Shown: one piece after another, positions 6,811 to 59,523 of the stretch | Numbering within the stretch: position 1 is the stretch's first letter | Layout of the letters: the number at the start of each line of letters is the position of its first letter | IMG/VR virus record: IMGVR_UViG_3300027974_000021 | DNA: 64,000 nt | Reading direction: 5' to 3' (one strand) | Source of the DNA: a virus | Translations under genes and position numbers: made by a program | Notes under the pieces: model-generated | What the model was told of the DNA's origin: nothing | Databases searched by the model: none | Seen by the model: the letters and a program-made list of their open reading frames with translations, nothing else

Positions 6811-7863
6811 ATGACAACAAGAAACTTTAGAGTTAATAACGGACTATCAGTAGGTGATGTCGCTATTAGCGCTACAACAAATAAAATAACAGGATTAACA
6901 ACGGCTGCACCAACAGCTGACGGAGATTCAGCTAACAAAAAATATGTGGACGATCAGATTGCTGCTTTATCATTTGCAACCATCGGCACAGGTAACACAT
7001 CTATCACAGTCACAGATTCAGGCACTGGATCAATTGCAACTGTAGTAGACGGTACCACAGTTAAAACACAAACACAATCATTGTGTACATTTGCCACTGA
7101 CGTTAGAATCAATGGAAATTTAACGTTAGCTGGAACCAACACAATCATTAACACCACTACTTTATCAGTGGAAGACAACATCATTGAAGTGAACAGAAAT
7201 ATCTCTGCCAATGCTGGAATGCCTTCTTTTTCTGGATTAAAAGTCAACAGAGGTGAAACATCTTCTGCCACAGAACAAGATTTATTCTGGGTTTGGGATG
7301 AAACATTCACAGATGATGCTTCAACAATCTATGCAGCTGCCGCTGGCGGTGCATGGACTGCTCTAAGAGCAACTTCTACCAACGATCCAGGGTTTATCAG
7401 CACACAAGATGCAACACTGGTGGACATACGATGCAGAATCGTTAACGCTACAGCAACTTCAGCTCAATACGCGGATATCGCGGAGAGATTTGCAGCAGAT
7501 GCTCCAATGACTGAAGGCGCAGTGGTTATGTTGGGCGGTGCACAAGAAATTACTGAAACTTCAGAAGAACTTTCTGAAAAAGTTTTTGGTGTTATTTCTT
7601 CAAAACCAGCCTACATGATGAACTCAGGTGCTGGTAATAACGAATCACACCCTTTTGTGGCTATGACTGGTAGAACTCCTGTGAGAGTTATCGGACAAGT
7701 GAACAAAGGTGACAGAATAGTATCATCTAGCGTAAAAGGCACTGCTAGAGCTGCTAAAACTGGTGAATCAATTAACCCTTTCCATGTTATTGGAAGAGCT
7801 CTTGAGAGCAAATCTGATGCAGGTATTGGAATGGTAAATTGTTTCGTTCAAGCAAAGAACTAA
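6811..7863 (+). CDS. Fibre/appendage protein with C-terminal intramolecular-chaperone (Peptidase G2-like) domain
   Basis: AQYADIAERF...GVIS..PAY.MN...VAMTGRTPVRV.G...KGD.IVSS...IGRALE motifs; SD GGGAG. Confidence 0.65.
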   Translation: MTTRNFRVNNGLSVGDVAISATTNKITGLTTAAPTADGDSANKKYVDDQIAALSFATIGTGNTSITVTDSGTGSIATVVDGTTVKTQTQSLCTFATDVRINGNLTLAGTNTIINTTTLSVEDNIIEVNRNISANAGMPSFSGLKVNRGETSSATEQDLFWVWDETFTDDASTIYAAAAGGAWTALRATSTNDPGFISTQDATLVDIRCRIVNATATSAQYADIAERFAADAPMTEGAVVMLGGAQEITETSEELSEKVFGVISSKPAYMMNSGAGNNESHPFVAMTGRTPVRVIGQVNKGDRIVSSSVKGTARAAKTGESINPFHVIGRALESKSDAGIGMVNCFVQAKN

Positions 7864-7889
7864 TAAGTAAAACACTTCCTAAGTAGTTG

Positions 7890-7911
7890 AAAAGGGCCGA
7901 AAGGCCCTTTT
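7890..7911 (+). terminator. Intrinsic terminator
   Basis: AAAAGGGCC-GAAA-GGCCCTTTT. Confidence 0.85.
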
Positions 7912-8006
7912 CTCGTTTATAGCATAAATACCTATACTGCGGTCAGCCGGCAATGTAATCAGGCTGTGTGAGGATATCCTCACTAACATAGAACAAGGAG
8001 CTCGGT

Positions 8007-11000
8007 ATGGCTATAGGCCGTATATCTGGTTCAATGTTAAAATCTAACCTGACTAGAAACGGGGTAGATCTAGCATTTGAAACCAACATTCTTTATCTTG
8101 ACGTTACCAACGCTCGAGTTGGAATTGGGACTTCTTCACCATCAACAGCATTACACGTAATCGGAACAACTACCACTGATAATCTAGTGGTTAATAACAT
8201 AACATCAGACGACAGCACAGCCATACAGATCAATGACGGCATCAACGTCAGTGGCACAGTGACCGCAAACAGTGGCCTGGTTGCCAATGGCATAACCTAT
8301 CCCACCACAGACGGCAGCAACGGACAGGTATTAACCACAAACGGCTCTGGCACACTGAACTTTGTTAGTCCAAGCGCATTTGGTAGCATGACCTTTGTGG
8401 GTGATGACAGCACAGGTTCCACAATCAACACAGCAGAGACACTGAAATTCGCAGGAGCAACAGGCATAACCACTTCTGTAGTAAACGACACTGTCACAAT
8501 AACTGGACCAAATTTAAGTGCATACCTAACCAATTCTCCAATCACGGTGGTAGGTGATGACTCCACGGGCACTACATTAAACACAGGTGAAACAATTAAA
8601 ATTGCAGGTGCTGGAGGAATCACCACAGCAGTGTCGGGAGATGTATTAACTATCACTGGTGCTAATCAAGCACAAGGTATCACATTCGTAGGCGATGATT
8701 CCACTGGCACAAGAATTTCCGATGGTGAAACTCTAAAAATAGCAGGCACAAGCAATATCACAACGGCCATGTCAGGTGACACTCTGACCATCACAGGCAG
8801 CAAAGACATCAACGTTAATTCTATATCATCTGGAGATTCATCTGCTATACAGATCAATGATAACGTAAATGTATCAGGCACTTTTAATGCCAAAACCATT
8901 GTGACCAATGATCTAATATCCGAAGACAGCACTGCTATCAATGTGTTGGATGGCATGAATGTGTCAGGCACACTGAGTGCTGATGTATTAGATGTGAATG
9001 AAATCAGTTCATCGGATTCATCTGCTATACAGATCAATGACAGTTTAAATGCCAGTGGTACTATCACGGCCGCAAGTTTTGTTACACACGGTGTATCAGG
9101 CAATATCACAGGTGTTAATAATATTGAAGTTAATCAGATTTCCAGCAATGATTCCACTGCTGTACAGGTAGCAGATGGCATGAATGTGTCAGGTACTCTA
9201 ACAGCTCCAACATTCGTAACCAACGATATCAGTTCTAATGATTCTACTGCAATACAAATCAATGATGCTGTGAATATTGCTGGTAATTTGAGCATGAATG
9301 GTAACAAAATTACTAATTTGCCCACTCCACTTTCAGACAATGAGCCTGCTACTAAAAACTATGTAGACAATCAATTTGCTGCTGCTGGATCAGGCACTGT
9401 GACATCGATCACCGCAGGCACAGGACTTACGGCTTCTCCAACTAATCCTATAACCACCACAGGCACAATAGCACTGGATTTCAGCACTGTGGTTGCTCGA
9501 ATAGTAGGCGATGACTCTACAGGCACAGATCTTCGAGTAGGTGAAACAATTAAAATTGCAGGAACATCTAATATCACAACTGCAGTATCAGGAGATACTT
9601 TAACCATCACAGGACCAAATTTAAGTGCATATCTAACCAATTCTACTCTAACTGTGGTAGGTGACGACAGCACAGGCACTACATTAAACACAGGTGAAAC
9701 AATTAAAATTGCAGGTGCTGGAGGAATCACCACAGCAGTGTCGGGAGATGTATTAACTATCACTGGTGCTAATCAAGCACAGGGTATAACAGTAGTTGGA
9801 AATGACAGCACAGGCACAAGAATATCAGATGGTGAAACTTTACAAATTGCTGGCACAAGCAACATCACAACTGCCGTGTCGGGAGACACCCTGACCATCA
9901 CTGGTCCAGATCTAAGTTCCTTCATCACGGCTTCAAGCACTGACACATTATCAAATAAAACTTTTACTCTTGCTCAAAGTGGTGGTACAAGTGCATATGC
10001 AACTAAAAGAGTTTTACAATACAACGAAGGAACTGGAGTAATTACATATAGTAATAAATTAGATGCTGTAAGCCCATACATTACAGGATATGGTTCAGAA
10101 ATTCACGTTAGTCCAGTTGCTCTTGATAACACAGGTAATGGAACCATTGGCGATCCAGTTAAAACAATTGCTAAAGCATTAGAATTAGCTGCACTTGCTT
10201 TCGAAACAACTACTGCTGGCTCAAGAAAAACAATTATTCTACATCCAGGAGATTATGCAGAAAATGTCACACTTGATACTCAATATATTGTTTTAACCAC
10301 ACACGAGGCAATAGGCAAAAATACAACTCTTTCTGGCACATTAACTATTTCAAAAGGTTGTACTGTTAATGGACTGAAGATGACAAATCTTATTATTTCA
10401 GCAACTTCAGCAACAGGCTCAGTTGATATTATTAATTGTACAGTGACAACAGCAACTACAAAAACATCAAGTGCATATACAAATTTTAGATTATGCGATT
10501 TATCTTCATCTACATTAAGTATTACTGGTGCTGGCTCAGTCGTGCTGAATGGTGGTAATTATGGTACTGTCACTGTAAATAATGCTTCTGCTGCAGTTTT
10601 GGCTAAAGCAGTTATTACAATGGCACCAGTGACTTTAACAGCAGGAACATTACAAATTGCTGACACAGTTATCTACTCTGCTACTAATACATCTAATGCT
10701 ATAACACAAAGTGCTGGATCATTTTTAACATTAAACAATTGTCAAACATTAATACCTGATTTAACAAACGTAGCAAGAAATAGTTTTGGTGGATATTATT
10801 CTATTCTTCATTCTGTTTATGATAAAGCAAACTCTACATTCGGTGGAACATCATTATCAGCAGTTTCATATAGTCAGTATGTTAATGCTGATAGATTAAC
10901 TCTAAATGGATCAACATCTGGTGCTACTATAATTAACGCAACTGCTGCTGCAGGAACTACTACATTAACACTTCCAGCTGCAACTGACACTTTAGTTGGA

Positions 11001-30960: not shown

Positions 30961-31560
30961 ATGAATAAAAAAACTAAAGAACCAAAAATACATTACGTCA
31001 ATAATGCTGAATTTCTTAAAGCATTAATTCAATGGAAAAAAGATTGTGTTGACGCAGAAGATAGTGGAGAAGAACATCCACCAAGAATTCCTAATTACAT
31101 AGGTGAATGTATTTTAAAAATAGCAACACGTCTTTCTACACGTCCAAATTTTAATAATTATACATATCGTGATGATATGATATTAGATGGTATTGAAAAT
31201 TGTATTCAATATCTTCACAACTTCGATCCTACCAAATCTAAAAATCCCTTTGCTTATTTTACTCAAATCATATATTACGCATTCTTAAGACGTATTATGA
31301 AAGAAAGAAAACAAGCTTATATTAAAACTAAAATTCTTACTTCTTTACCACCTACTTTTTTTCAAGAACTTGGTATGAGTGATGATGAAATATCAGAGTC
31401 AGAAAGAAACTTTGATAAATTTGTTAGTAAGATGAGCCAAGCAATAGAAAGCCAAAATAACTTTGATGAATGGCTAGTTAAAAAGTCTGTTGCTAGGAAA
31501 ATGAAAAATAATATTGAAACGATTGATTTAGATAATGACAAAGATAACGATTATAACTGA
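30961..31560 (+). CDS. gp55: Late sigma factor
   Basis: HYVNN.EF, PNF.NYTYRDDMI.DGIENC, NPFAYFTQI. Confidence 0.93.
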   Translation: MNKKTKEPKIHYVNNAEFLKALIQWKKDCVDAEDSGEEHPPRIPNYIGECILKIATRLSTRPNFNNYTYRDDMILDGIENCIQYLHNFDPTKSKNPFAYFTQIIYYAFLRRIMKERKQAYIKTKILTSLPPTFFQELGMSDDEISESERNFDKFVSKMSQAIESQNNFDEWLVKKSVARKMKNNIETIDLDNDKDNDYN

Positions 31561-32602: not shown

Positions 32603-34311
32603 TAATATTTCATAAATTAAAATGGCGTAATTTCCTCTCAACAGGTAATGTTTGGTGCGAAATACAATTGAATAAAATACGAAGTACAATCGTAGTAGGA
32701 AAAAATGGTGATGGTAAATCTACCATGCTTGATGCTCTTACTTTTGTTTTATTTGGTGAACCATTTAGACAAGTAAAAAAGAATCAACTAATTAACTCAA
32801 TTAATGGCAAAAATGCTGAAGTAGAAATTGAATTTTCTTCTGGTACAAATACCTATAAAATAAAAAGAGGAATTAAACCTAATATATTTGAATATTATGA
32901 AAATGGAGTATTACAAAATCAATCAGCAGCAATCAGTGATTGTCAAAAGAAAATAGAAGAACAAATACTTAAAATTAATTATAGAACATTCTGTCAAGTT
33001 TGTATTTTAGGATCTGCTTCTTATATTCCTTTTATGCAATTACCTACAAATCAACGTAGATTAGTAATTGAAGATATTTTAGATATAGGTATCTTCAGTA
33101 AAATGAATGATATACTTAAAATAAGAGCAGTTGATACTAAATTAGCATTAGTTGATGTAAATAAGGATATAGAGATAGCTAAATCAAACATACAAGCCCA
33201 AAAAACTATACTTGAAAACTTATCAGTATCTAAACAAGAGAACATAATCAAGATAGATGATAAAATAGAAAAGTATAGAGAAGATATAAAAGAAATACAA
33301 AACAAAATAATTACATTAAATAAAAGACTTTTAGAGATTGATAGTTTAACAACTGACTCAGTAGATGTATTTGATCGTATAGACAAAGCAAGAAAACTAA
33401 TCGCAATAAATGAAAGTCGTATTGCTGAGATACAAGAAAAGATAATATTTTTTAACGAGAACGAAAATTGTCCTACTTGCGAATCAACAATACAGCATAA
33501 GCAACATGCATTAAGTAAATTAGAAAAAGAAAAAGAAGATATAAAATCTAGACTCTCTAAACTATTAGAAGCTTTGACTGCTGGAGAAACTAGATCGAGA
33601 GAAATAAGAACATTATTTAATGAGAAAATAGAAATTAATAATGAAATATCTAATTTAAATACTAGTGTAAAATTTACTGAAACTAATATTGAAAACAATA
33701 TAGCTGAAAAACAATCATTATCAGACACAACTAGTGATACCAACAAATATAAAGATAAAATTAAAGAATTAGCTGAACTAGCATTAGTTGATGTTGACAA
33801 AAAGAATAATTTAATGCAGGTAATAGAACTAGAAAATACTTCTAAATTACTCTTACAAGATTCAGGTGTTAAAACTGCTATTATTCGAAAGTATTTACCT
33901 GTAATGAATAAGTTAATTAATAAATATTTACAAGCGATGGACTTTTATGTTCATTTTGAATTAGATGAGAACTTCACTGAGACGATACGTTCAAGACATA
34001 GAGATGAATTCACTTATGATAGTTTTTCAGAGGGTGAAAAGATGCGTATCGACTTAGCTATATTGTTCACATGGCGACATATAGCGAAATTGAAGAACAG
34101 TATTAATACATCTTTATTAGTACTGGATGAAATATTTGACTCATCTTTAGATGCATCAGGTGTAGATTACTTTTTAAATCTAATCTCGCAACTAGACGCA
34201 CAAGTTAATGTTTTCGTAATTAGCCATAAGGGTGATACTCTAATTGAAAAATTTATGAGTACAATTAAATTTGAGAAGAAAAACGACTTCTCTACAATCG
34301 TAAATGCATAA
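32599..34311 (+). CDS. gp46: Recombination ATPase (Rad50-like)
   Basis: GKNGDGKS, CPTC hook, FSEGEK, LDEIFD, ISH. Confidence 0.94.
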   Translation: MIIFHKLKWRNFLSTGNVWCEIQLNKIRSTIVVGKNGDGKSTMLDALTFVLFGEPFRQVKKNQLINSINGKNAEVEIEFSSGTNTYKIKRGIKPNIFEYYENGVLQNQSAAISDCQKKIEEQILKINYRTFCQVCILGSASYIPFMQLPTNQRRLVIEDILDIGIFSKMNDILKIRAVDTKLALVDVNKDIEIAKSNIQAQKTILENLSVSKQENIIKIDDKIEKYREDIKEIQNKIITLNKRLLEIDSLTTDSVDVFDRIDKARKLIAINESRIAEIQEKIIFFNENENCPTCESTIQHKQHALSKLEKEKEDIKSRLSKLLEALTAGETRSREIRTLFNEKIEINNEISNLNTSVKFTETNIENNIAEKQSLSDTTSDTNKYKDKIKELAELALVDVDKKNNLMQVIELENTSKLLLQDSGVKTAIIRKYLPVMNKLINKYLQAMDFYVHFELDENFTETIRSRHRDEFTYDSFSEGEKMRIDLAILFTWRHIAKLKNSINTSLLVLDEIFDSSLDASGVDYFLNLISQLDAQVNVFVISHKGDTLIEKFMSTIKFEKKNDFSTIVNA

Positions 34312-34314
34312 ACT

Positions 34315-34638
34315 ATGAAAACAAAACACAAAAAACCAATAACGATAAATCCATTTACTGGAAAATCAAATGAAGTAATTGTCCGTCAAGGAATGGCATC
34401 ACAAACATCTGATGCTTATGGTGCTGTTGATAGAAGAGATGAATCTAAAACAGTTCTTAGAGATAAACAACATCACTTATACTTCAAATTAAAGCTAATT
34501 GAAAATTGGATATATGAAAAGAAACATCGTAAGTTTTTTTCCGATTCAGAACCAACTATAAAACAATTAGAAACACAACGACATAATATGAAACATGAAT
34601 ATAATCGTGTGTCTAAATTATTAAAAGAAAGTAAATAA
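34315..34638 (+). CDS. Hypothetical protein
   Basis: Basic 107-aa ORF, coupled to next gene. Confidence 0.5.
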   Translation: MKTKHKKPITINPFTGKSNEVIVRQGMASQTSDAYGAVDRRDESKTVLRDKQHHLYFKLKLIENWIYEKKHRKFFSDSEPTIKQLETQRHNMKHEYNRVSKLLKESK

Positions 34639-35485: not shown

Positions 35486-35659
35486 ATGGACTCAAGATTT
35501 GACCACATCAATTCCCTTCAAAAACAAAAACAAGCATTCGAATATCAATTAAGACAACAAAAAGAAAGAAATCAAACTCTTAAAGAAATACAACACATAG
35601 GTGTTATATTTGGTGTTGGTTTTTTATTTGGATTATTATTCAATGTCATATTCTTTTAA
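35486..35659 (+). CDS. Small membrane-anchored protein (57 aa, not in ORF track)
   Basis: MDSRFDHINS...IGVIFGVGFLFGLLFNVIFF; just downstream of promoter. Confidence 0.5.
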   Translation: MDSRFDHINSLQKQKQAFEYQLRQQKERNQTLKEIQHIGVIFGVGFLFGLLFNVIFF

Positions 35660-35804
35660 ATCACATAACGAATTAAATAAAAATTTGACTGATTACATTT
35701 CAACAGTCACTGATAAAGAAGACATTTCTAAAATACCGATCGAATCGATTAATGATTTTTTAAATGGTTTAGAGTCATTTTTAGAAGAATCAGCAAGTAA
35801 TTAA
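35643..35804 (+). CDS. Small hypothetical protein (53 aa)
   Basis: ATG 35643 overlapping previous ORF; track start at 35601 probably too early. Confidence 0.45.
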   Translation: MSYSFKSHNELNKNLTDYISTVTDKEDISKIPIESINDFLNGLESFLEESASN

Positions 35805-40697: not shown

Positions 40698-40971
40698 ATT
40701 TAACGAAGATAAACTAATAAAAGAATTAAAAGAATATATTGACCAAACATATAAAGGTCATTATTCTAAAAAGAAATTTCAGTCAACAGAGTTCATCGTT
40801 GATTGTGGTCATGGTCTAGGATTTACACTAGGCAATGTTTTAAAATATGCTCAAAGGTATGGGCATAAAGATGGACAAAATCGTAAAGATCTTTTAAAGA
40901 TTTTACACTATGCTCTTCTTGCTTTACATATACACGATCAAGGAGAAAAACTTAATAATGAAAAGGAGTGA
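40690..40971 (+). CDS. DUF3310-like (T7 gp1.7-like) protein
   Basis: HY...Q..E.I...G....F.LGNVLKYA.RYG.K.G..RKDL.K..HY. Confidence 0.7.
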   Translation: MYKFNEDKLIKELKEYIDQTYKGHYSKKKFQSTEFIVDCGHGLGFTLGNVLKYAQRYGHKDGQNRKDLLKILHYALLALHIHDQGEKLNNEKE

Positions 40972-40973
40972 GA

Positions 40974-41675
40974 ATGAAACTAAGTAAAGAAACACTTGCG
41001 ATTATGAAAAACTTCGCAGGTATTAATGCCAATCTAATGTTAAAGAATGGTAATAAAATATCAACAATATCGCCAGCAAAAAGTGTAATGGCTGTGGCAC
41101 AAATTTCAGAGAACTTGCCAATTAATGGTTCTGGGAATTTTGGTATATATGAATTAAACGATTTTCTATCAGCTTACACATTAATGGAAGATCCAGATTT
41201 AACATTTGCTGATAATTTTTGCATGATTTCTAAAGGTCATCAAAAAATTAAATTCTATTCAGCAGCAAGTGAAATGCTACTTGTTCCATCAAAAGAAAGT
41301 TTGCCTGTTTCTGATGATGTATCTTTTAATTTAAGAGCAGCAGATTTAGATATTATTTCAAAGTCAGCAGCAGTTTTAAAAGTAAGTGACATATCAATCG
41401 TATCAAAAGATGGTAAAGTAAGTGTTGAAGTTGCTGATAAAAAAGCACAACAAGCTGCAAAATCAGGACAATCAACAGCTAATACTTTTAATCTAGATAT
41501 TGGTACATCAGATAAAGAGTTTAAAGTGAATATGAAAGTTGATAATTTACAAAAAATTGTACTTACAGATTATGTAGTGACAGTTGATAGCAAAAAACTA
41601 TCTAAGTTTTCAGCAACTAAAGGTTCGCTAGTATATTACATCGCAATCGAATCTGATTCTGTAATCGGCAAATAA
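40974..41675 (+). CDS. gp45: Sliding clamp
   Basis: MKLSKETL..MKNFA.IN, FGIYELN.FL, YYIAIE; SD AGGAG before ATG 40974. Confidence 0.92.
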   Translation: MKLSKETLAIMKNFAGINANLMLKNGNKISTISPAKSVMAVAQISENLPINGSGNFGIYELNDFLSAYTLMEDPDLTFADNFCMISKGHQKIKFYSAASEMLLVPSKESLPVSDDVSFNLRAADLDIISKSAAVLKVSDISIVSKDGKVSVEVADKKAQQAAKSGQSTANTFNLDIGTSDKEFKVNMKVDNLQKIVLTDYVVTVDSKKLSKFSATKGSLVYYIAIESDSVIGK

Positions 41676-41717: not shown

Positions 41718-42227
41718 ATGAATAAAGCGACTCTTAAAAAATTAATTCCTGTTTATATAGATCATAACAATAAATTTCATAAAATTAAAGATTATTTTGT
41801 TCATGAAGATACTGGTGATGTTTGGTCTTTTAAATGGAGAAGATATATGAAACTTAAACCTCCTATATGTAAAAATAAACCAAAATCATCACGAGATCTT
41901 TATCCTTATTTGTCTATTCATAATAAAAAAATATTTAAAAATCTTGCTGGCACAAGAAAAACTATGGATATTCATAAAATTGTTAAAACTTCTTTAATTT
42001 TTCATTACAATACTCTCGCAAAAGAACTTATAAAAGTTTATAAGCATATACAAAAAAAAGATTTATCACTATTACCAAAATCAATCCAAGAACAATTATA
42101 TAGAGGATTAATAGTGAATCATATAGACCACAATAAACGAAATTACAATCCAAAAAACCTTGAATTAGAATCTTTTCAAGGTAATGCAGTTAAATATCAA
42201 AAACATAAAAAACAAAAAGCACTATGA
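41718..42227 (+). mobile_element. Free-standing HNH homing endonuclease gene
   Basis: VNHIDHNKRNYNPKNLE HNH motif, NUMOD4-like Y.V...G.VWS; inserted between gp45 and gp44. Confidence 0.75.
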
Positions 42228-43177
42228 TAAACACATCTGAAAACCAATTTGTTTGGGTTGAGAAGTATCGCCCTCGCACAATAAACGAATGTATTTTACC
42301 TAAAAAATTTAAACTTACATTAAAGTCTTTCATTAAAGGAGGACAGATACCACACTTTCTATTTTATGGTACAGCAGGAGTTGGTAAAACTACTGTGGCT
42401 CGTGCACTATGTGATGAAATTGGTGCTGAGTATATAATCATAAATGGTTCTGAAGAGGGTCGTATGATTGACACTCTAAGAGTGAAGATTAAAGGATTCG
42501 CTTCAACTGTATCTTTGACTGCAGCAAAAAAAGTAATTATTCTAGATGAAGCTGATTATATGACTCCGAATATAATGCAACCAGCTTTACGAGCATTTAT
42601 AGAAGAATTTTCTTCTAATTGTAGATTTATACTTACTTGTAATTTTAAGAATAAAATTATTGATCCGATTAAATCAAGATGTTCTGTAGTTGACTTTAAA
42701 ATACCAAATGATGAGAGAGCAGTTATTGCTACTGATTTTTTCAATAGAGTTGTTGAGATCCTGGAAAAAGAAAATATAAAATACGATAAGAAAGTAGTCG
42801 CTACTCTTATACAAAAGTTCTTTCCTGACTTTAGAAAAACATTAAACGAACTACAAAGATATTCGGTAGGTGGTACTATCGACACAGGAGTTCTTGTGGG
42901 GGTATCAGATGAGTCTTACACACACTTATTTAAATATTTAAAGAATAAAGAGTGGGATAAAATGCGTGAGTGGATTGATCTTAATTCAGACATTGATACT
43001 ACAAATTTATTCTCAGAAATATTTGAAAAATGCCAACCAGCAATTGAAAAGAATTCAATACCAGAGTTGGTGTTAATACTAGCAGATTATCAATACAAGT
43101 CAGCTTTCGTAGCAGATGCGAATATTAATAAGATTGCTGCAATGACAGAGATAATGAAAAAATGTCAGTGGAAGTAA
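42224..43177 (+). CDS. gp44: Clamp loader large subunit
   Basis: WVEKYRP, GTAGVGKT, ILDEAD, SRC. Confidence 0.94.
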   Translation: MINTSENQFVWVEKYRPRTINECILPKKFKLTLKSFIKGGQIPHFLFYGTAGVGKTTVARALCDEIGAEYIIINGSEEGRMIDTLRVKIKGFASTVSLTAAKKVIILDEADYMTPNIMQPALRAFIEEFSSNCRFILTCNFKNKIIDPIKSRCSVVDFKIPNDERAVIATDFFNRVVEILEKENIKYDKKVVATLIQKFFPDFRKTLNELQRYSVGGTIDTGVLVGVSDESYTHLFKYLKNKEWDKMREWIDLNSDIDTTNLFSEIFEKCQPAIEKNSIPELVLILADYQYKSAFVADANINKIAAMTEIMKKCQWK

Positions 43178-43572
43178 AAAAGTATAAAACAAATCCATTT
43201 AAGTTCGTCACAGCTATCAATTACAGTAAAGAAAACCTACATGAAACAGAGACTTTCGAAGAAGATTATTTGCCTTATATTATTAATAGATCTCTCTCTA
43301 TGTTTCCAGATACAGTCCAAATAGCTAATGAAATCAACATTTTGCACTATGTTCCAAAGAAGTGGCAATTTCTGTTTTACCTAAATATAGTCGCTAAGAA
43401 GAAAAGATATTCGAATAAAAAGTGGGCAAAAAAATCTAAAGATTCTAATGAACCTTTTATTATGGAATATTATAACGTTTCTGCTCAAAAAGCAAAAGAG
43501 ATATTATCCCTTTTAAAACCAGAGCAGATTGAAATTATTAAATCAAAATTTTATAAAGGTGGCATACAATGA
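43162..43572 (+). CDS. gp62: Clamp loader small subunit
   Basis: Y.PYIINRSLS.F.DT...ANE.N, YYNVS..KA, KGG end. Confidence 0.88.
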   Translation: MSVEVKKYKTNPFKFVTAINYSKENLHETETFEEDYLPYIINRSLSMFPDTVQIANEINILHYVPKKWQFLFYLNIVAKKKRYSNKKWAKKSKDSNEPFIMEYYNVSAQKAKEILSLLKPEQIEIIKSKFYKGGIQ

Positions 43573-46360: not shown

Positions 46361-48865
46361 ATGAATTCTAAAATAGGTACAAATTTTTACACTAACGTTT
46401 CCACTACAGCCAACGATGTGCTCGTTCGAGCAGTCACTGATGTTGGTACTCGAATCCAAGAACGAATCCCTTTTAAACCACACTGTTATATTACCAAAGG
46501 AACTGGTGATACACCCTACAAAACACTAGACGGAAAACCTTGTTATAGAGTTAATTTTGACTCTATGAAACACGCAAGAACATTTTTTGAAGAATTTAAA
46601 ACAATCTCTAATTTTGACGTGCATGGAATGCTTTCATTCACTCATCAATATATTAATCAAGCATATCCTGAAGCAAGTTTAGATTTTGATTATTACAAAA
46701 TAAGAATCTATTCTTTAGATATAGAAACAACAACTGAGAATGGTTTTCCAGACGTAAATAATCCAACTGAATCTATTATACTTCTTTCAGTACAAGACAT
46801 TCATACTAAAAAAATCATCACATGGGGATTAAAAAAATATACAGGAGAACGTACAGATGTTGAATATCGTGCTTTCCCTGATGAGAATGCTATGCTTGAT
46901 GATTTTATTAAGTGGTGGCATAAAAATTGTCCAGACATTATTACTGGTTGGAATGTAGGTGCATTTGATACAGTTTATCTTTATAAAAGAATTCAGATAT
47001 TGCTAGGTGATTATACTGCTAAGAAATTAAGTCCATGGTCTTTTATTTCATCTAAAACAGTTTCAGTAAGAAATAGACAAACAACATATATTGATTTTGA
47101 AGGAACATCTCTTTTAGATTATATGAGTTTGTATAAGAAATATACTTATACGAATAAAGAATCTTATAAGCTTGTTGATATAGCACAAGATGAATTAGGT
47201 GTGACTAAATTAGATCACAGTGAATATGCTTCATTTAAAGAATTTTATACAAAGAACTGGAATAAGTTTGTTGATTATAACATAAGAGATACTGAATTAA
47301 TTACTCAACTAGAAGATAAAATGCGTCTTTTAGAATTAATTGTCACTTTTGCATATAAAGCGAAAGTTAATTTTACTGACGTTTATTCTCAAGTAAGAAC
47401 TTGGGATATGATTATTCACAATCACCTTATACAGAAAAATATTATTATTCCACCTAAAAAACCAATAGGAAAAAGTCAACAATTTGAAGGAGCATATGTA
47501 AAAGATCCAATCTTAGGAATGCATAAATGGGTTGTTGGGTTTGACTTAACTTCACTTTATCCACATTTAATTATGCATTATAATATCTCACCAGAAACAA
47601 TTCAAAATAAAACTTACAAATCAGGAGTAGATCATTATCTAAACAATCCAGCTGAGTTTCAAGATGATGAAACTGTTGCTGTAAATGGTTCAGTTTATAC
47701 AAATAAAATTGAGGGAATGCTTCCTAATATTATGAATACTTTTTATGCTCAAAGAGATATTGCTAAAAAGAAATTAATAGAAGCTGAAAAACAATTTCAA
47801 ACAACCAAAGATCCTAAGCTTAAAAAAGTTATATCAAAATATAATAACGAACAAATGGCTTATAAGATCGCTCTGAATAGTGCTTATGGTGCGATAGGTA
47901 ATGAACATTTTAGATATTTCGACATACGTATGGCTGAAGCAATCACACTTGGTGGACAACTTGCCATAAAATGGATTCATAATAAGATGAATGATTATGT
48001 GAACAAAATTTTAAAAACAGAAAATAAAGATTATATTATTGCAGTTGATACAGATTCAATTTATGTAAATTTTGAAAAAATAGTAGAGAAAGCATTCTTA
48101 GATGTACCTGATAGAGCAAAGATTGTAGCATTTATAGATAAAATTTGTCAAGATAAAATAATACCATATATCAATACTTGTTATGATGAATTAGCAAAAC
48201 GTCATAATGCTAAGAATAAAATGATAATGAAACGAGAGAGTATTTCTGATAGAGCAATATGGACTGCTAAGAAAAGATATATTCTTTCAGTATTAGATCA
48301 AGAGGGTATTTCTTATAGTACACCAAAATTTAAAATAATGGGTTTAGAAATTGTTAAATCAAGTACACCTATGATTGTAAGGAAAAAGCTTAAAGATGCT
48401 CTTCCTATTATATTATATGGCAATCAATATGAATTATTTAATTTTATTAACAACTATAAAAAAGAATTTTATAGTTTAAGACCAGAACAGATTGCATTCC
48501 CTAGATCATGTCAAGGTATAAACGAATATGCTGATTCTGTAAAGATTTATAAACTATCAACACCAATGCATACTCGTGGTGCGTTAATGCATAATCATTT
48601 TGTAAATAAAATGAAACTAGCGAAGAAAATTGCTCTTATAAGAGAAAGTGATAAAATTAAATTCATACATCTTAAAACACCAAATCCTTTACAATCTACA
48701 AATGTAATTGCTTTTTTAGACACACTACCAAGTGAATTTAAAGTAGATCAATATATTGATTATGATACAATGTTTCAAAAAGTATTTTTAGATGCTTTAA
48801 AGTTGATTATTACACCATTGGGGTGGAAAACTGAAGAAACAAGTAGTTTAGAAAATTTCTTTTAA
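46361..48865 (+). CDS. gp43: Family B DNA polymerase
   Basis: DIETT exo, FDLTSLYP, KIALNSAYG, DTDS, KKRY; C-terminal SLENFF clamp peptide. Confidence 0.97.
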   Translation: MNSKIGTNFYTNVSTTANDVLVRAVTDVGTRIQERIPFKPHCYITKGTGDTPYKTLDGKPCYRVNFDSMKHARTFFEEFKTISNFDVHGMLSFTHQYINQAYPEASLDFDYYKIRIYSLDIETTTENGFPDVNNPTESIILLSVQDIHTKKIITWGLKKYTGERTDVEYRAFPDENAMLDDFIKWWHKNCPDIITGWNVGAFDTVYLYKRIQILLGDYTAKKLSPWSFISSKTVSVRNRQTTYIDFEGTSLLDYMSLYKKYTYTNKESYKLVDIAQDELGVTKLDHSEYASFKEFYTKNWNKFVDYNIRDTELITQLEDKMRLLELIVTFAYKAKVNFTDVYSQVRTWDMIIHNHLIQKNIIIPPKKPIGKSQQFEGAYVKDPILGMHKWVVGFDLTSLYPHLIMHYNISPETIQNKTYKSGVDHYLNNPAEFQDDETVAVNGSVYTNKIEGMLPNIMNTFYAQRDIAKKKLIEAEKQFQTTKDPKLKKVISKYNNEQMAYKIALNSAYGAIGNEHFRYFDIRMAEAITLGGQLAIKWIHNKMNDYVNKILKTENKDYIIAVDTDSIYVNFEKIVEKAFLDVPDRAKIVAFIDKICQDKIIPYINTCYDELAKRHNAKNKMIMKRESISDRAIWTAKKRYILSVLDQEGISYSTPKFKIMGLEIVKSSTPMIVRKKLKDALPIILYGNQYELFNFINNYKKEFYSLRPEQIAFPRSCQGINEYADSVKIYKLSTPMHTRGALMHNHFVNKMKLAKKIALIRESDKIKFIHLKTPNPLQSTNVIAFLDTLPSEFKVDQYIDYDTMFQKVFLDALKLIITPLGWKTEETSSLENFF

Positions 48866-54728: not shown

Positions 54729-56027
54729 ATGACAACAAAAGTGATAACCGCAGCAACTAAAGTTGATTGTGAGCATTTGCTTGCGACTTTTGTAGATCAT
54801 TCACACTATGACACTTTGGTGGAATATGATTGTGATTTCTATGCTCCATCTGTAGATGGGATAAACAGCGAGAAAAACATTCTGTTTAAGTTTAGAAAAA
54901 ATTGGTTTACGAAAGAGCAACAAGACTTAGCATATAAAGGTCTTCGAGAAGCAGCAGTCGAAACACAAAATCGTGGCATAGCAGCAGGACCAAAAGGTTC
55001 AAAACTTGGTGGTCGTGACTGGGTGACGGAATATCAAGAAGAAATGCTTGAAGCATTATCTAAGTATGAAACTACACTTGATGGTTCTAATCCTATAACA
55101 ACAATCACAGAAAAATATAAAAACAAAGATAAAACAGCAGCAGGAAACAGAGGATCTGTTTGGCTTAAGAATAAAGTCACTGATGAAGGATTTATCTTTG
55201 AAGAGTGGTTAAATGAAATAAAATCATTATCTCGTGATGAAATAGTGAAAGAAGCAATACGAGTAAAGTCTAAATTGACTTCAACAACTTCATATGCGCA
55301 AGCAGTGTGGTCTGGTATTGCTGGATATTTTGATAGATATCCTCGTATTCCTTATGGAAGAGCAACATCATTTACTGAAAAGAATCCTGAGAAATTTGCT
55401 ATGGGGTTCCCATTCTTACAAAAACTTTCAGATGGTTTTAAACAATTACTGCCTGAACGTTTTGCGAAACAAAAAGAAGCATGTGACAAAATGGATCCAA
55501 AGTTTATTATTCCAGGAACTGTATTTACTACAGCGACTGTAAATAAAACTTTTAGAACAGCAGCACATAGAGATGCTGGTGATTTAAATGAAGGATTTAG
55601 TAATCTTACAGTAGTATCAAACAATGGTAAGTACAAAGGAGGTTATCTAGTACTACCAGAATACAAAGTTGCTGTAAATATACGTCCAGGAGATTTATTA
55701 TTAATTAACAATCACGAGGGTATTCATGGAAATACTGAAATGACTGTTGAAGATCCTGAAGCAGAACGTATTTCTTTCGTTTGTTATTTCAGAGAAAAGA
55801 TGCTAGAACTTGGCTCTTGGAATTATGAATTAACAAGAAAAAATTACGTTGAAGATAGACGTAGAAATAAAGACCATCCATTACAAAGAGAACTTTGGAA
55901 TGGAGTTTCAGAAAATATGTGGAAAGATCAAGAATGGTATGATTATCTAACATCTAAATTAGGTAAAGAATCATTATACAAATACCATCCTGAAGCAAAT
56001 AAATCTTCACTTGAAGCATTTTTTTAA
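54729..56027 (+). CDS. TET/JBP-family 2OG-Fe(II) dioxygenase
   Basis: SGIAGYFD, FRTAAHRDAGD (HxD), IHGNT, RISFVCYFR. Confidence 0.8.
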   Translation: MTTKVITAATKVDCEHLLATFVDHSHYDTLVEYDCDFYAPSVDGINSEKNILFKFRKNWFTKEQQDLAYKGLREAAVETQNRGIAAGPKGSKLGGRDWVTEYQEEMLEALSKYETTLDGSNPITTITEKYKNKDKTAAGNRGSVWLKNKVTDEGFIFEEWLNEIKSLSRDEIVKEAIRVKSKLTSTTSYAQAVWSGIAGYFDRYPRIPYGRATSFTEKNPEKFAMGFPFLQKLSDGFKQLLPERFAKQKEACDKMDPKFIIPGTVFTTATVNKTFRTAAHRDAGDLNEGFSNLTVVSNNGKYKGGYLVLPEYKVAVNIRPGDLLLINNHEGIHGNTEMTVEDPEAERISFVCYFREKMLELGSWNYELTRKNYVEDRRRNKDHPLQRELWNGVSENMWKDQEWYDYLTSKLGKESLYKYHPEANKSSLEAFF

Positions 56028-56029
56028 AC

Positions 56030-57034
56030 ATGTCTCTCCATGAATTTTTAGGAGAGGAACGAGCACTAGATTGGTATTATACTGCTAATTCTTTAAACAA
56101 GGGATTAAAACTTGGTTATCGGAGAGTATCTGGTAAGATAGGATTAACAAATAAAGAATCTGGTGTTCGTGGCGCATGGGTAGAAAAAAGAATTGCACTC
56201 TTTAAGAACTTATTCGCATCTGGTTATTCAATAATTCCTTTTTCAACACCAACAGAAGCAACAGCAGCAGATGGATTTACATCTGTTGATACATACACAA
56301 ATTGTGATATACTTATATTAGAATTTGGTGGAACAAATTTACAATTCTATAAAAAAGATTGGGACAAAACAGTTGAACTGATTAAGTCACATTCTGGTAA
56401 AATAATATTCATTAACGACGATCCTGATCTACCATTTCTTTGGGAGTTATTACCAAATGAAAAATGGGATAGATGGGTAGTCGCAGCAAACGCAACCAAC
56501 TCTGCAGAAGTTTCAACAATTCTTAAATGCCCAATAGGTGTAAGAGTTGTAGATTTACCAATGGCGAATGGAATGTCATTTGAATCTTTTTCAAATGGTG
56601 ATATAGATAAAACTGTTTATATCGGAAGACCAAATGGAAGAACAAAATACTTCAAAGAATTTTTAAAGTCATCAAGTCTTGAAATATCAGGAAAACCAAA
56701 AGAGTGGACTGATTTTAATATAAACGTTATTGAAAATCCACAACAAAAAGATCGAAGAAAATTTTATAGAAATTATAAAGGATGTTTAACTGTTTATGAT
56801 AGTAAGCATAAAACATCTGGATGGAGAACTGGTCGTGCTTTTCATGCACTTTATGCTGGTATTCCAGTTTGTGCACCATCTGGAAATAATGGTTTAAATT
56901 GGACATATCCTGTAGAAACTGCAGAGGACTTAACTAAATTTACATCGTTATCAGATGAAAAACGTAAATTGATTTGGGAAAAACAAAAATCAATTATTCA
57001 AAATGAAACAAATATAGATTTAATTTTATTATGA
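56030..57034 (+). CDS. Putative GT-B DNA glycosyltransferase (beta-glucosyltransferase-like)
   Basis: ~334 aa; DILILEFGG..LQFY, IIFINDDPDLPF, VYIGR..GR, TGR...ALYAGIPV; adjacent to TET/JBP. Confidence 0.55.
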   Translation: MSLHEFLGEERALDWYYTANSLNKGLKLGYRRVSGKIGLTNKESGVRGAWVEKRIALFKNLFASGYSIIPFSTPTEATAADGFTSVDTYTNCDILILEFGGTNLQFYKKDWDKTVELIKSHSGKIIFINDDPDLPFLWELLPNEKWDRWVVAANATNSAEVSTILKCPIGVRVVDLPMANGMSFESFSNGDIDKTVYIGRPNGRTKYFKEFLKSSSLEISGKPKEWTDFNINVIENPQQKDRRKFYRNYKGCLTVYDSKHKTSGWRTGRAFHALYAGIPVCAPSGNNGLNWTYPVETAEDLTKFTSLSDEKRKLIWEKQKSIIQNETNIDLILL

Positions 57035-57480
57035 TAGTATCTTACGATATGGATGGTGTTCTTGCACTAAACCCACCACCAAATATAAAAAAATGGGGAC
57101 ATATGAATGGGGCTGAAAGAAGAGCAAGAAAAGAATTTCTATATGATTGGTATAGTTCTGCTGAACTATTATATAAACCAACTGAAGATAAATTTCATGT
57201 AATTTCAGCAAGAAAGAAAGACCAACGCACATGGGAAATAACGATGAATTGGTTAAATAAATATTTTCCTGGAAGAGTAATTTCATTATCTTTATTAAAT
57301 GTACCAAGAACTGTGAACAATGTAGTAAAGTTTAAGAATGATGCGATTAACTCAATTGGTGCAATCGAGCATACTGAAGATAATAAAAAAGTATTAAGAG
57401 GTATTTCAAAAATTAATAAGACTATTAAATTATACTTTTGGGAAAAGGATATGACAAACAAGGAAATATTCAATGGCTAA
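57031..57480 (+). CDS. HAD-family phosphatase
   Basis: YDMDGVL motif I, ISAR motif II, K, ED motif IV. Confidence 0.75.
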   Translation: MIVSYDMDGVLALNPPPNIKKWGHMNGAERRARKEFLYDWYSSAELLYKPTEDKFHVISARKKDQRTWEITMNWLNKYFPGRVISLSLLNVPRTVNNVVKFKNDAINSIGAIEHTEDNKKVLRGISKINKTIKLYFWEKDMTNKEIFNG

Positions 57481-59148: not shown

Positions 59149-59301
59149 TATGAATAAACAATATAATGAATATGATTCGTTCGATTCTAATTGGTCAGCT
59201 GAAATAGAATCAATAAATCCATCAGGGCAAAGTCAAGGAAACGAAGAAGTTGACAATTACAAAACATCATCACTTTGGGAAGTTATTAAGGATATGTTTG
59301 A

Positions 59302-59523
59302 ATGAAAGATCGTTTAAACAAAGCTTGGGAGTTTGAAATAATACTTAACGAGAGCAAAAATAAAATAAAATCTTGGTTTTATTCTGACACTGAAGAAGAT
59401 GCGAAAAATAGAATTGAAAATTATATGAATGCTAAAATTATTTCTTTAAAAGAAATACCAAAGCCAGAACTATATTATGCTGATAATAAAAAAAATAAAG
59501 TTATTAAAGAAAACAAAGTTTGA
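59302..59523 (+). CDS. Hypothetical protein
   Basis: 73-aa ORF. Confidence 0.45.
   Translation: MKDRLNKAWEFEIILNESKNKIKSWFYSDTEEDAKNRIENYMNAKIISLKEIPKPELYYADNKKNKVIKENKV

Follow-up and report, generated by a model that had tools for sequence, protein, structure and literature searches.

The 64,000-nucleotide stretch of viral DNA recorded as IMGVR_UViG_3300027974_000021 (the whole of it hereinafter designated the window) encodes a TET/JBP-type DNA-base dioxygenase whose last seven residues, SSLEAFF, are predicted to form a peptide that binds the gp45 sliding clamp, of the kind carried by T4 gp43, gp55 and gp33; we put the probability of this reading at roughly 0.75. The glycosyltransferase encoded directly downstream begins MSLHEFL, and by analogy with T4 RNase H we lean, less firmly, towards a second gp45-binding peptide in these first seven residues. 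Base modification is probably tethered in this way to the clamp on newly copied phage DNA. What we infer from the evidence below is that the tail binds gp45, which base is the substrate, when modification takes place relative to the replication fork and what tethering confers. The window is T4-like phage DNA, with gp23, gp20, a neck protein, UvsW, gp46/47-like proteins, gp55, gp45, gp44, gp62, RegA, gp43, UvsX and gp41, and the features on which the argument turns are as follows.

54729..56027, plus strand: TET/JBP-type (5mYOX) Fe(II)/2-oxoglutarate (2OG) DNA-base dioxygenase, 432 amino acids (PF12851; phrog_24024 over its full length)
56004..56027, plus strand: dioxygenase C-terminal tail SSLEAFF with the stop codon, candidate gp45-binding peptide on sequence and conservation
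46361..48865, plus strand: family-B DNA polymerase (gp43 homologue), 834 amino acids (PF00136, PF03104)
48842..48865, plus strand: polymerase C-terminal tail SSLENFF with the stop codon, in the same position as ...KASLDFLFG of T4 gp43
56030..57034, plus strand: DNA glycosyltransferase of predicted GT-B fold, like T4 beta-glucosyltransferase (BGT), 334 amino acids
56030..56059, plus strand: glycosyltransferase N-terminal peptide MSLHEFLGEE, candidate clamp-binding peptide from its likeness to the T4 RNase H start
40974..41675, plus strand: gp45 sliding clamp, the proposed receptor (PF09116, E 2e-9; phrog_223, E 4e-55)
42224..43572, plus strand: clamp loader, gp44 (42224-43177) and gp62 (43162-43572) (Gp44_lid, AAA, Phage_clamp_A)

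The dioxygenase open reading frame (ORF) ends in YHPEANKSSLEAFF and the polymerase ORF in KTEETSSLENFF (all C-terminal sequences quoted here run to the stop codon). The original prediction had drawn attention to the near identity of SSLEAFF and SSLENFF and to the similar start of the glycosyltransferase; the coordinates are exact, the translated ends agree, and MSLHEFL occupies 56030-56050. T4 gp33 ends in ...NTLDFLL and T4 gp55 in ...SPSLDFLYEAND (SLDFLYEAND). PMC3012046 describes RB69 gp45 with the C-terminal PCNA-interacting peptide (PIP) box of gp43 bound to it (1B8H), and a PIP box at the N-terminus of RNase H. The dioxygenase tail is written tct tca ctt gaa gca ttt ttt taa (56004-56027, SSLEAFF) and the polymerase tail agt agt tta gaa aat ttc ttt taa (48842-48865, SSLENFF). 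Five of the seven tail codons differ, with Ser and Leu drawn from different codon boxes, so that the likeness lies at the peptide level and a repeated DNA element as its source is ruled out.

Both peptides lie at the extreme termini of their enzymes. Over the last 12 residues of the AlphaFold2 model of the dioxygenase, the predicted local distance difference test score (pLDDT) falls to 71 and then to 48, and the tail leaves the globular body, as a flexible tail should. Residues 1-10 of the glycosyltransferase model have a pLDDT of 68 with a short helix at residues 3-7, the motif beginning at residue 2, and the start MSLHEFLGEE is much like that of T4 RNase H, MDLEMMLDED. The C-terminus of the glycosyltransferase, ...NIDLILL, also fits a loose clamp pattern; with a pLDDT of 89 and a conserved end of the form [IV]D[PL][LI]xL it looks like a component of the fold, and we claim no clamp motif there.

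The tail is both conserved and highly specific. We scanned 2807 ORFs of 84 related loci for the strict C-terminal pattern [ST][LIV][DE]x[FL][FL]x?$, with the last 40 residues of the ORFs shuffled as a control. The pattern is matched by 133 ORFs (shuffled mean 0.46, maximum 3), comprising all 50 polymerases, 74 of the 82 dioxygenases, four TAGT proteins, five GNAT proteins and nothing else; the remaining eight dioxygenases pass a looser pattern. In these loci the strict tail is absent from gp41 (0/80) and UvsX (0/62), and from gp44, gp62, RegA, the HAD protein and all others. Within the window, a loose pattern placed no more than 12 residues from either terminus, [ST]L..[FLYMW]{2}, picks out the dioxygenase, the polymerase, the glycosyltransferase and three apparently spurious ORFs of 41-54 amino acids.

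Conservation in homologues had been proposed as a check on the tail, and it bears the prediction out. All 120 of the closest database homologues of the dioxygenase (58-99% identity) end in [ST][LIV][DE]x[FL]F followed by 0-1 residue, and among representatives of 50%-identity clusters the tail is kept in nearly all full-length relatives, even with unrelated linkers (...EERVSLDDFF, ...KKETASLEDFF and ...EASNTLESFF). It persists in relatives as distant as 30-40% identity, in which the preceding linker varies; past ...YHPE, the linker is variable in both length and sequence. L428 is nearly invariant and F432 invariant in the alignment of 48 tail-bearing sequences (A1), and F432 remains nearly invariant (at least 90%) in the alignment that includes tail-less members (A4). 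The tail is missing from two full-length relatives (P0128 and P0138) and from short-form dioxygenases of about 300 residues. Many of these short forms (P0160, P0176, P0209, P0230 and others) instead end ...ELERAK.R..GDPLY or GTPLF, possibly the ParB-dependent C-terminal extension of which PMC13229309 speaks. The N-terminal peptide of the glycosyltransferase is less widely kept: of 71 long-form homologues, 45 have M-S-L-x-x-[FL]-[FL], and none of the 36 short forms does. Most of the short forms end ..[AKE]LGL, a second conserved terminal motif.

Polymerase and dioxygenase tails resemble each other genome by genome. In 17 of 20 distinct pairs, which are not phylogenetically independent of one another, the two proteins have equally many residues past the two aromatic ones. 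Two relatives that possess gp45 illustrate the pairing: in DLP_6 the dioxygenase and polymerase end in ...ATLGDFFV and ...ATLDSFFA, and in C48C1 in ...ISLEEFFV and ...ATLEDFFG, respectively. S-CBWM1, which lacks both gp45 and a T4-type polymerase, encodes a dioxygenase without the tail. The dioxygenase of L131, a 41.6-kb ENA contig from a small WhiB-encoding phage, is likewise tail-less, at 290 amino acids; its TET-glycosyltransferase-HAD module (6825-9727) adjoins a ParB_N gene and a terminase, as seen in the 19-kb locus viewed. The glycosyltransferase of that module starts at the conserved IGYRR core, has no N-terminal peptide and ends ...FPFEALGL, and the HAD homologue has 148 amino acids.

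The reach of the tail is broader than the original prediction proposed, extending in relatives to TAGT, AADT, GNAT and Dam-type methylase proteins. TAGT, AADT and GNAT are unrelated DNA-modifying families that adjoin the dioxygenase in these relatives, and in C48C1 the tail of the D12 methyltransferase matches that of its own polymerase (...AATLEDFFG). Genome-wide ORF scans of C48C1 and DLP_6 yield very few credible tail bearers: the polymerase, the dioxygenase, TAGT (in DLP_6), the D12 methyltransferase (in C48C1) and a baseplate-hub protein. The tail-bearing and tail-like ends beyond the polymerase and the dioxygenase are listed below.

Metagenomic loci: TAGT (PF20691), tail ...LSTLEGFF
DLP_6: TAGT (PF20691), tail ...SDLSSFFN
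Cr30: TAGT, tail ...SDLSKLF
Metagenomic loci: AADT (PF18724), tails ...FNLEEFLV and ...KVGLEVYF
Metagenomic loci: GNAT, two groups, tails ...PSLEEFLV and ...VDLNSFL
Metagenomic loci: FkbM-type methyltransferase, a weaker match, tail ...GLDTLYKR
C48C1, L133:15480-16364 (record 33480-34364): D12-class N6-adenine DNA methyltransferase directly after the polymerase, tail ...GESTLDAFFG
C48C1, L138:7098-7805, minus strand: T4-type baseplate-hub protein (PF12322), tail-like end ...FAGIDDFF
DLP_6, record 135667-136368, minus strand: T4-type baseplate-hub protein (PF12322), tail-like end ...RGMENFFV

We also modelled the gp45 trimer, from an alignment of 31 rows, together with the 39 C-terminal residues of the dioxygenase, from one of 48 rows. 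The complex score is 0.56 (0.56, 0.56 and 0.57 in the individual runs), against 0.00 for the best of three controls; the runs share at least 41% of their contacts and the partner pLDDT is at least 46. When the tool was calibrated on 80 solved complexes and 110 mismatched pairs, 58 of the former and 2 of the latter reached its mark; with a score of 0.60 or less, no more than seven of the solved complexes reached it, as did both of the passing mismatches. The tool grades the present result as 'weak support'. A structure of RB69 gp45 with a peptide (1B8H) has been solved, and the pass may therefore reflect likeness or memory rather than binding.

Several observations weigh against gp45 binding by the tail. 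Judged by the calibration of the tool, the one complex prediction is weak. Co-variation between the two proteins is imperfect: the polymerase of a lineage with an 'LF' tail was expected to end in LF too, whereas one genome pairs a polymerase ending ...SLDEFFS with a dioxygenase ending ...TLDSLFS. Cr30 has gp45, with a truncated dioxygenase end (...GATLF) and a polymerase ending ...DLSSLFD. Arg32 of the RB69 pocket is apparently not kept in the window gp45, on a by-eye reading of its pairwise alignment with T4 gp45 that is too unreliable to weigh on either side. The baseplate-hub proteins match the loose pattern, so DNA enzymes are not strictly alone in bearing the tail; the hub-protein ends are either chance convergence or something unexplained. 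In a related system, an interaction of T4 alpha-glucosyltransferase with gp45, reported in 2004 (Sommer et al., as cited in PMC6024577), was not reproduced with C-terminally His-tagged enzymes (bioRxiv 10.64898/2025.12.06.692756, 2025); a tag at that end would hide a C-terminal motif, which may bear on this negative outcome. Finally, the window gp55 homologue (30961-31560, plus strand; phrog_234, E 2e-61) ends in NIETIDLDNDKDNDYN and lacks the hydrophobic clamp-binding residues of T4 gp55, which indicates that the T4 rule does not carry over wholesale.

The altered gp55 end also implies that clamp use differs from that in T4, where one gp45 pocket serves gp43, gp55, gp33 and RNase H. Both points would suit a tail that binds gp45 for regulation and not for processive modification, whether by competing for the pocket with the polymerase, gp33 and gp55, by timing the switch to late transcription or by marking leftover clamps. 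We consider this improbable, since at least five unrelated DNA-modifying families bear the tail and recruitment of catalysts to DNA is the simpler account. The tail might instead be a terminal signal for another partner that the polymerase also uses, such as a replisome protein, a protease degron or an oligomerisation element, as the similar end on the baseplate-hub protein and the weak complex prediction (0.56) would allow; we rate this a shade lower still, given that the polymerase tail is the positional homologue of the T4/RB69 gp43 tail, whose binding to gp45 is established by structure, and that no tail is found where gp45 is absent. It is very unlikely that the tail is a structural part of the enzyme folds, or a chance or compositional likeness in an AT-rich genome. 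Phe, Leu, Ser and Glu are indeed common in AT-rich phage proteomes, but 133 matches were observed against 0.46 expected from shuffles, unrelated folds share the tail, the linker length varies, the tail pLDDT is low and the codons are unlike those of the polymerase.

If the tail binds gp45 as we predict, a simple sequence of events can be envisaged. The gp44/62 loader would place gp45 trimers on phage DNA at primer-template junctions, and the flexible linker would allow the tail to dock in one of the three pockets of each trimer. Docking would keep the enzyme on the duplex just made by the phage replisome, or on clamps left there, where the dioxygenase would hydroxylate a 5-methylpyrimidine, most likely converting thymine to 5-hydroxymethyluracil (5hmU); the glycosyltransferase would next add a sugar, in a pathway resembling that of base J. 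Held in this way, the enzymes would be locally more concentrated and more processive, and would act on phage DNA in preference to host DNA.

The dioxygenase consists of an N-terminal extension (residues ~1-185), a catalytic core (~190-360) and a C-terminal helical extension. Its match to the Tet_JBP profile PF12851 scores 82.6 bits (curated cut-off 34.9; E 2.4e-23) over residues 197-356 and profile positions 2-164 of 164. Its AlphaFold2 model (pLDDT 90.1) has the jelly-roll fold, with NgTET1 (5cg9/4lt5, E 6e-11), CcTet, human TET2 and CMD1 as the top Foldseek matches in the PDB. The HxD...H Fe(II) triad and the 2OG-binding Arg (H280, D282, H333 and R347) show no variation across an alignment of 56 sequences. 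These results agree with the enzyme class named in the original prediction, and the gp45, gp44 and gp62 that it invoked all lie within the window. Of the window ORFs scanned, none proved to be a C5-methyltransferase, which makes thymine a likelier substrate than 5-methylcytosine by the reasoning of PMC13229309; the product would then most likely be 5hmU.

The glycosyltransferase ORF begins 2 nt past the dioxygenase stop codon, a translationally coupled position. Its model (pLDDT 95.2) is closest by Foldseek to T4 beta-glucosyltransferase 1j39 (E 1.5e-8, template modelling (TM) score 0.69/0.67 over 341 columns), with further matches to 1qkj, 1c3j and 1bgu, at 14-15% identity to BGT in the structural alignment. 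The ORF has no Pfam or PHROG match at E <= 0.01 and belongs to neither PF09198 nor the TAGT family PF20691. The glycosyltransferase label of the original prediction thus stands at the level of fold (1j39, TM 0.69) and not at that of sequence family: on its predicted structure, the 334-residue protein is BGT-like by its GT-B fold and is not a member of the BGT family. Sugar transfer to 5hmU or 5-hydroxymethylcytosine would be consistent with the predicted fold and the coupled gene position.

The window gp45 shares 28% identity with T4 gp45 over its full length; the ORF call begins at 40968, and the second Met (40974) agrees with the T4 start. An HNH endonuclease gene (41718-42227, plus strand) sits between gp45 and gp44, and in a relative (L154:12155-15665) an HNH endonuclease ORF splits the DNA polymerase gene in two. 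The glycosyltransferase is followed by the third gene of the conserved TET-glycosyltransferase-HAD module, whose product bears the tail in none of 22 homologues.

57031..57480, plus strand: HAD-like protein, 149 amino acids, start MIVSYDMDGVLA, no tail (DxDGV motif read from the sequence; no Pfam match)

Two small ORFs of the window, neither with a PHROG match, have ends of related appearance. One at 35601-35804 (plus strand; 53-67 amino acids) ends in INDFLNGLESFLEESASN and resembles the T4 gp55 tail SLDFLYEAND; judged by this end, it could be a gp33-like clamp-binding co-activator, although it overlaps another small ORF and may not be real. The other, at 59150-59305 (plus strand; 51 amino acids), ends in KTSSLWEVIKDMFE and is loosely clamp-motif-like.

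Post-replicative hypermodification through the 5mYOX pathways of phages is under active study; according to PMC13229309, it is unclear why phages modify their DNA after and not before replication and by what route the enzymes come to their targets. A shared clamp tail would offer a concrete and testable answer, namely delivery of the modifying enzymes to DNA fresh from the phage replisome. If this is true, gp45 and its loader should be supplied when such pathways are reconstituted or expressed in other hosts, and the client list of the phage clamp would extend past replication and late transcription. In T4-like metagenomic contigs, the tail could also serve as a simple marker by which to recognise new DNA-modifying enzymes.

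The ParB-dependent T-dioxygenases of smaller phages (5mYOX clade C1) provide a close comparison. They belong to the same superfamily and share a neighbourhood of glycosyltransferase, AADT, GATase and P-loop kinase genes, and they need an accessory DNA-associated protein, ParB, on double-stranded DNA (PMC13229309). The window dioxygenase differs in being about 140 residues longer and in carrying a polymerase-type tail, and neither the window nor its close relatives yielded a ParB. We tentatively suggest that gp45 may be a general landing pad, perhaps an obligatory activator, for the post-replicative hypermodification enzymes of T4-like phages, including the TET/JBP dioxygenase, BGT-like and TAGT glycosyltransferases, AADT, GNAT and the Dam-type methylase. 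By analogy, and just as speculatively, gp45 could take the role that the cytidine triphosphate-dependent ParB clamp plays for the ParB-dependent T-dioxygenases. Such a landing pad, if real, could account for the ParB-less clade C1 5mYOX enzymes reported to be inactive alone in E. coli, and would provide sequence-independent marking of DNA made by the phage replisome only. A clean replacement of ParB by gp45 is weakened by a 433-residue ORF in a tail-bearing T4-like TET/AADT cluster (L012:13440-14741) with a sub-threshold ParB_N match (E 0.0085, 16.6 bits, cut-off 26.3), since ParB and the tail may not be mutually exclusive.

The tail had been thought undescribed for TET/JBP enzymes, and this holds for the motif itself: our literature search for hypermodification together with the PIP box gave no match, and in the literature searched a clamp-binding tail on modifying enzymes is undescribed. 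PMC8256090, PMC13229309 and bioRxiv 10.1101/2023.12.21.572611 report gp45 or clamp genes near 5mYOX pathways and ParB as an activator, and do not mention a gp45-binding motif; gp45 by name is absent from PMC13229309. The general idea has a precedent in the reported interaction of T4 alpha-glucosyltransferase with gp45, which likewise envisages a phage DNA-modifying enzyme working behind the fork by holding the clamp. Unlike the dioxygenase here, T4 a-gt lacks a tail of this kind, its C-terminus being ...KEQFDIITK, and in T4 the modified base is made before replication, whereas here oxidation must follow replication.

In eukaryotes, the PIP box of DNMT1 binds PCNA, so that a short clamp motif recruits a DNA-modifying enzyme to newly replicated DNA. 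DNMT1 differs in its clamp, another member of the family, in its motif (Qxx[LIM]xx[FY][FY]), in its activity as a C5 methyltransferase and in the internal position of the motif. The T4/RB69 proteins gp43, gp55 and gp33 have at their very end, past a flexible linker, a [ST]-L-[DE]-x-[FL]-[FLY] peptide of the same kind as the one we find here, with a consensus of SLDFLF in T4 and SLExFF in the present group. The T4 clients are a polymerase, transcription factors and a flap nuclease, whereas here they would be DNA-base-modifying enzymes; the type of motif is known, and the new element is the kind of client that would carry it.

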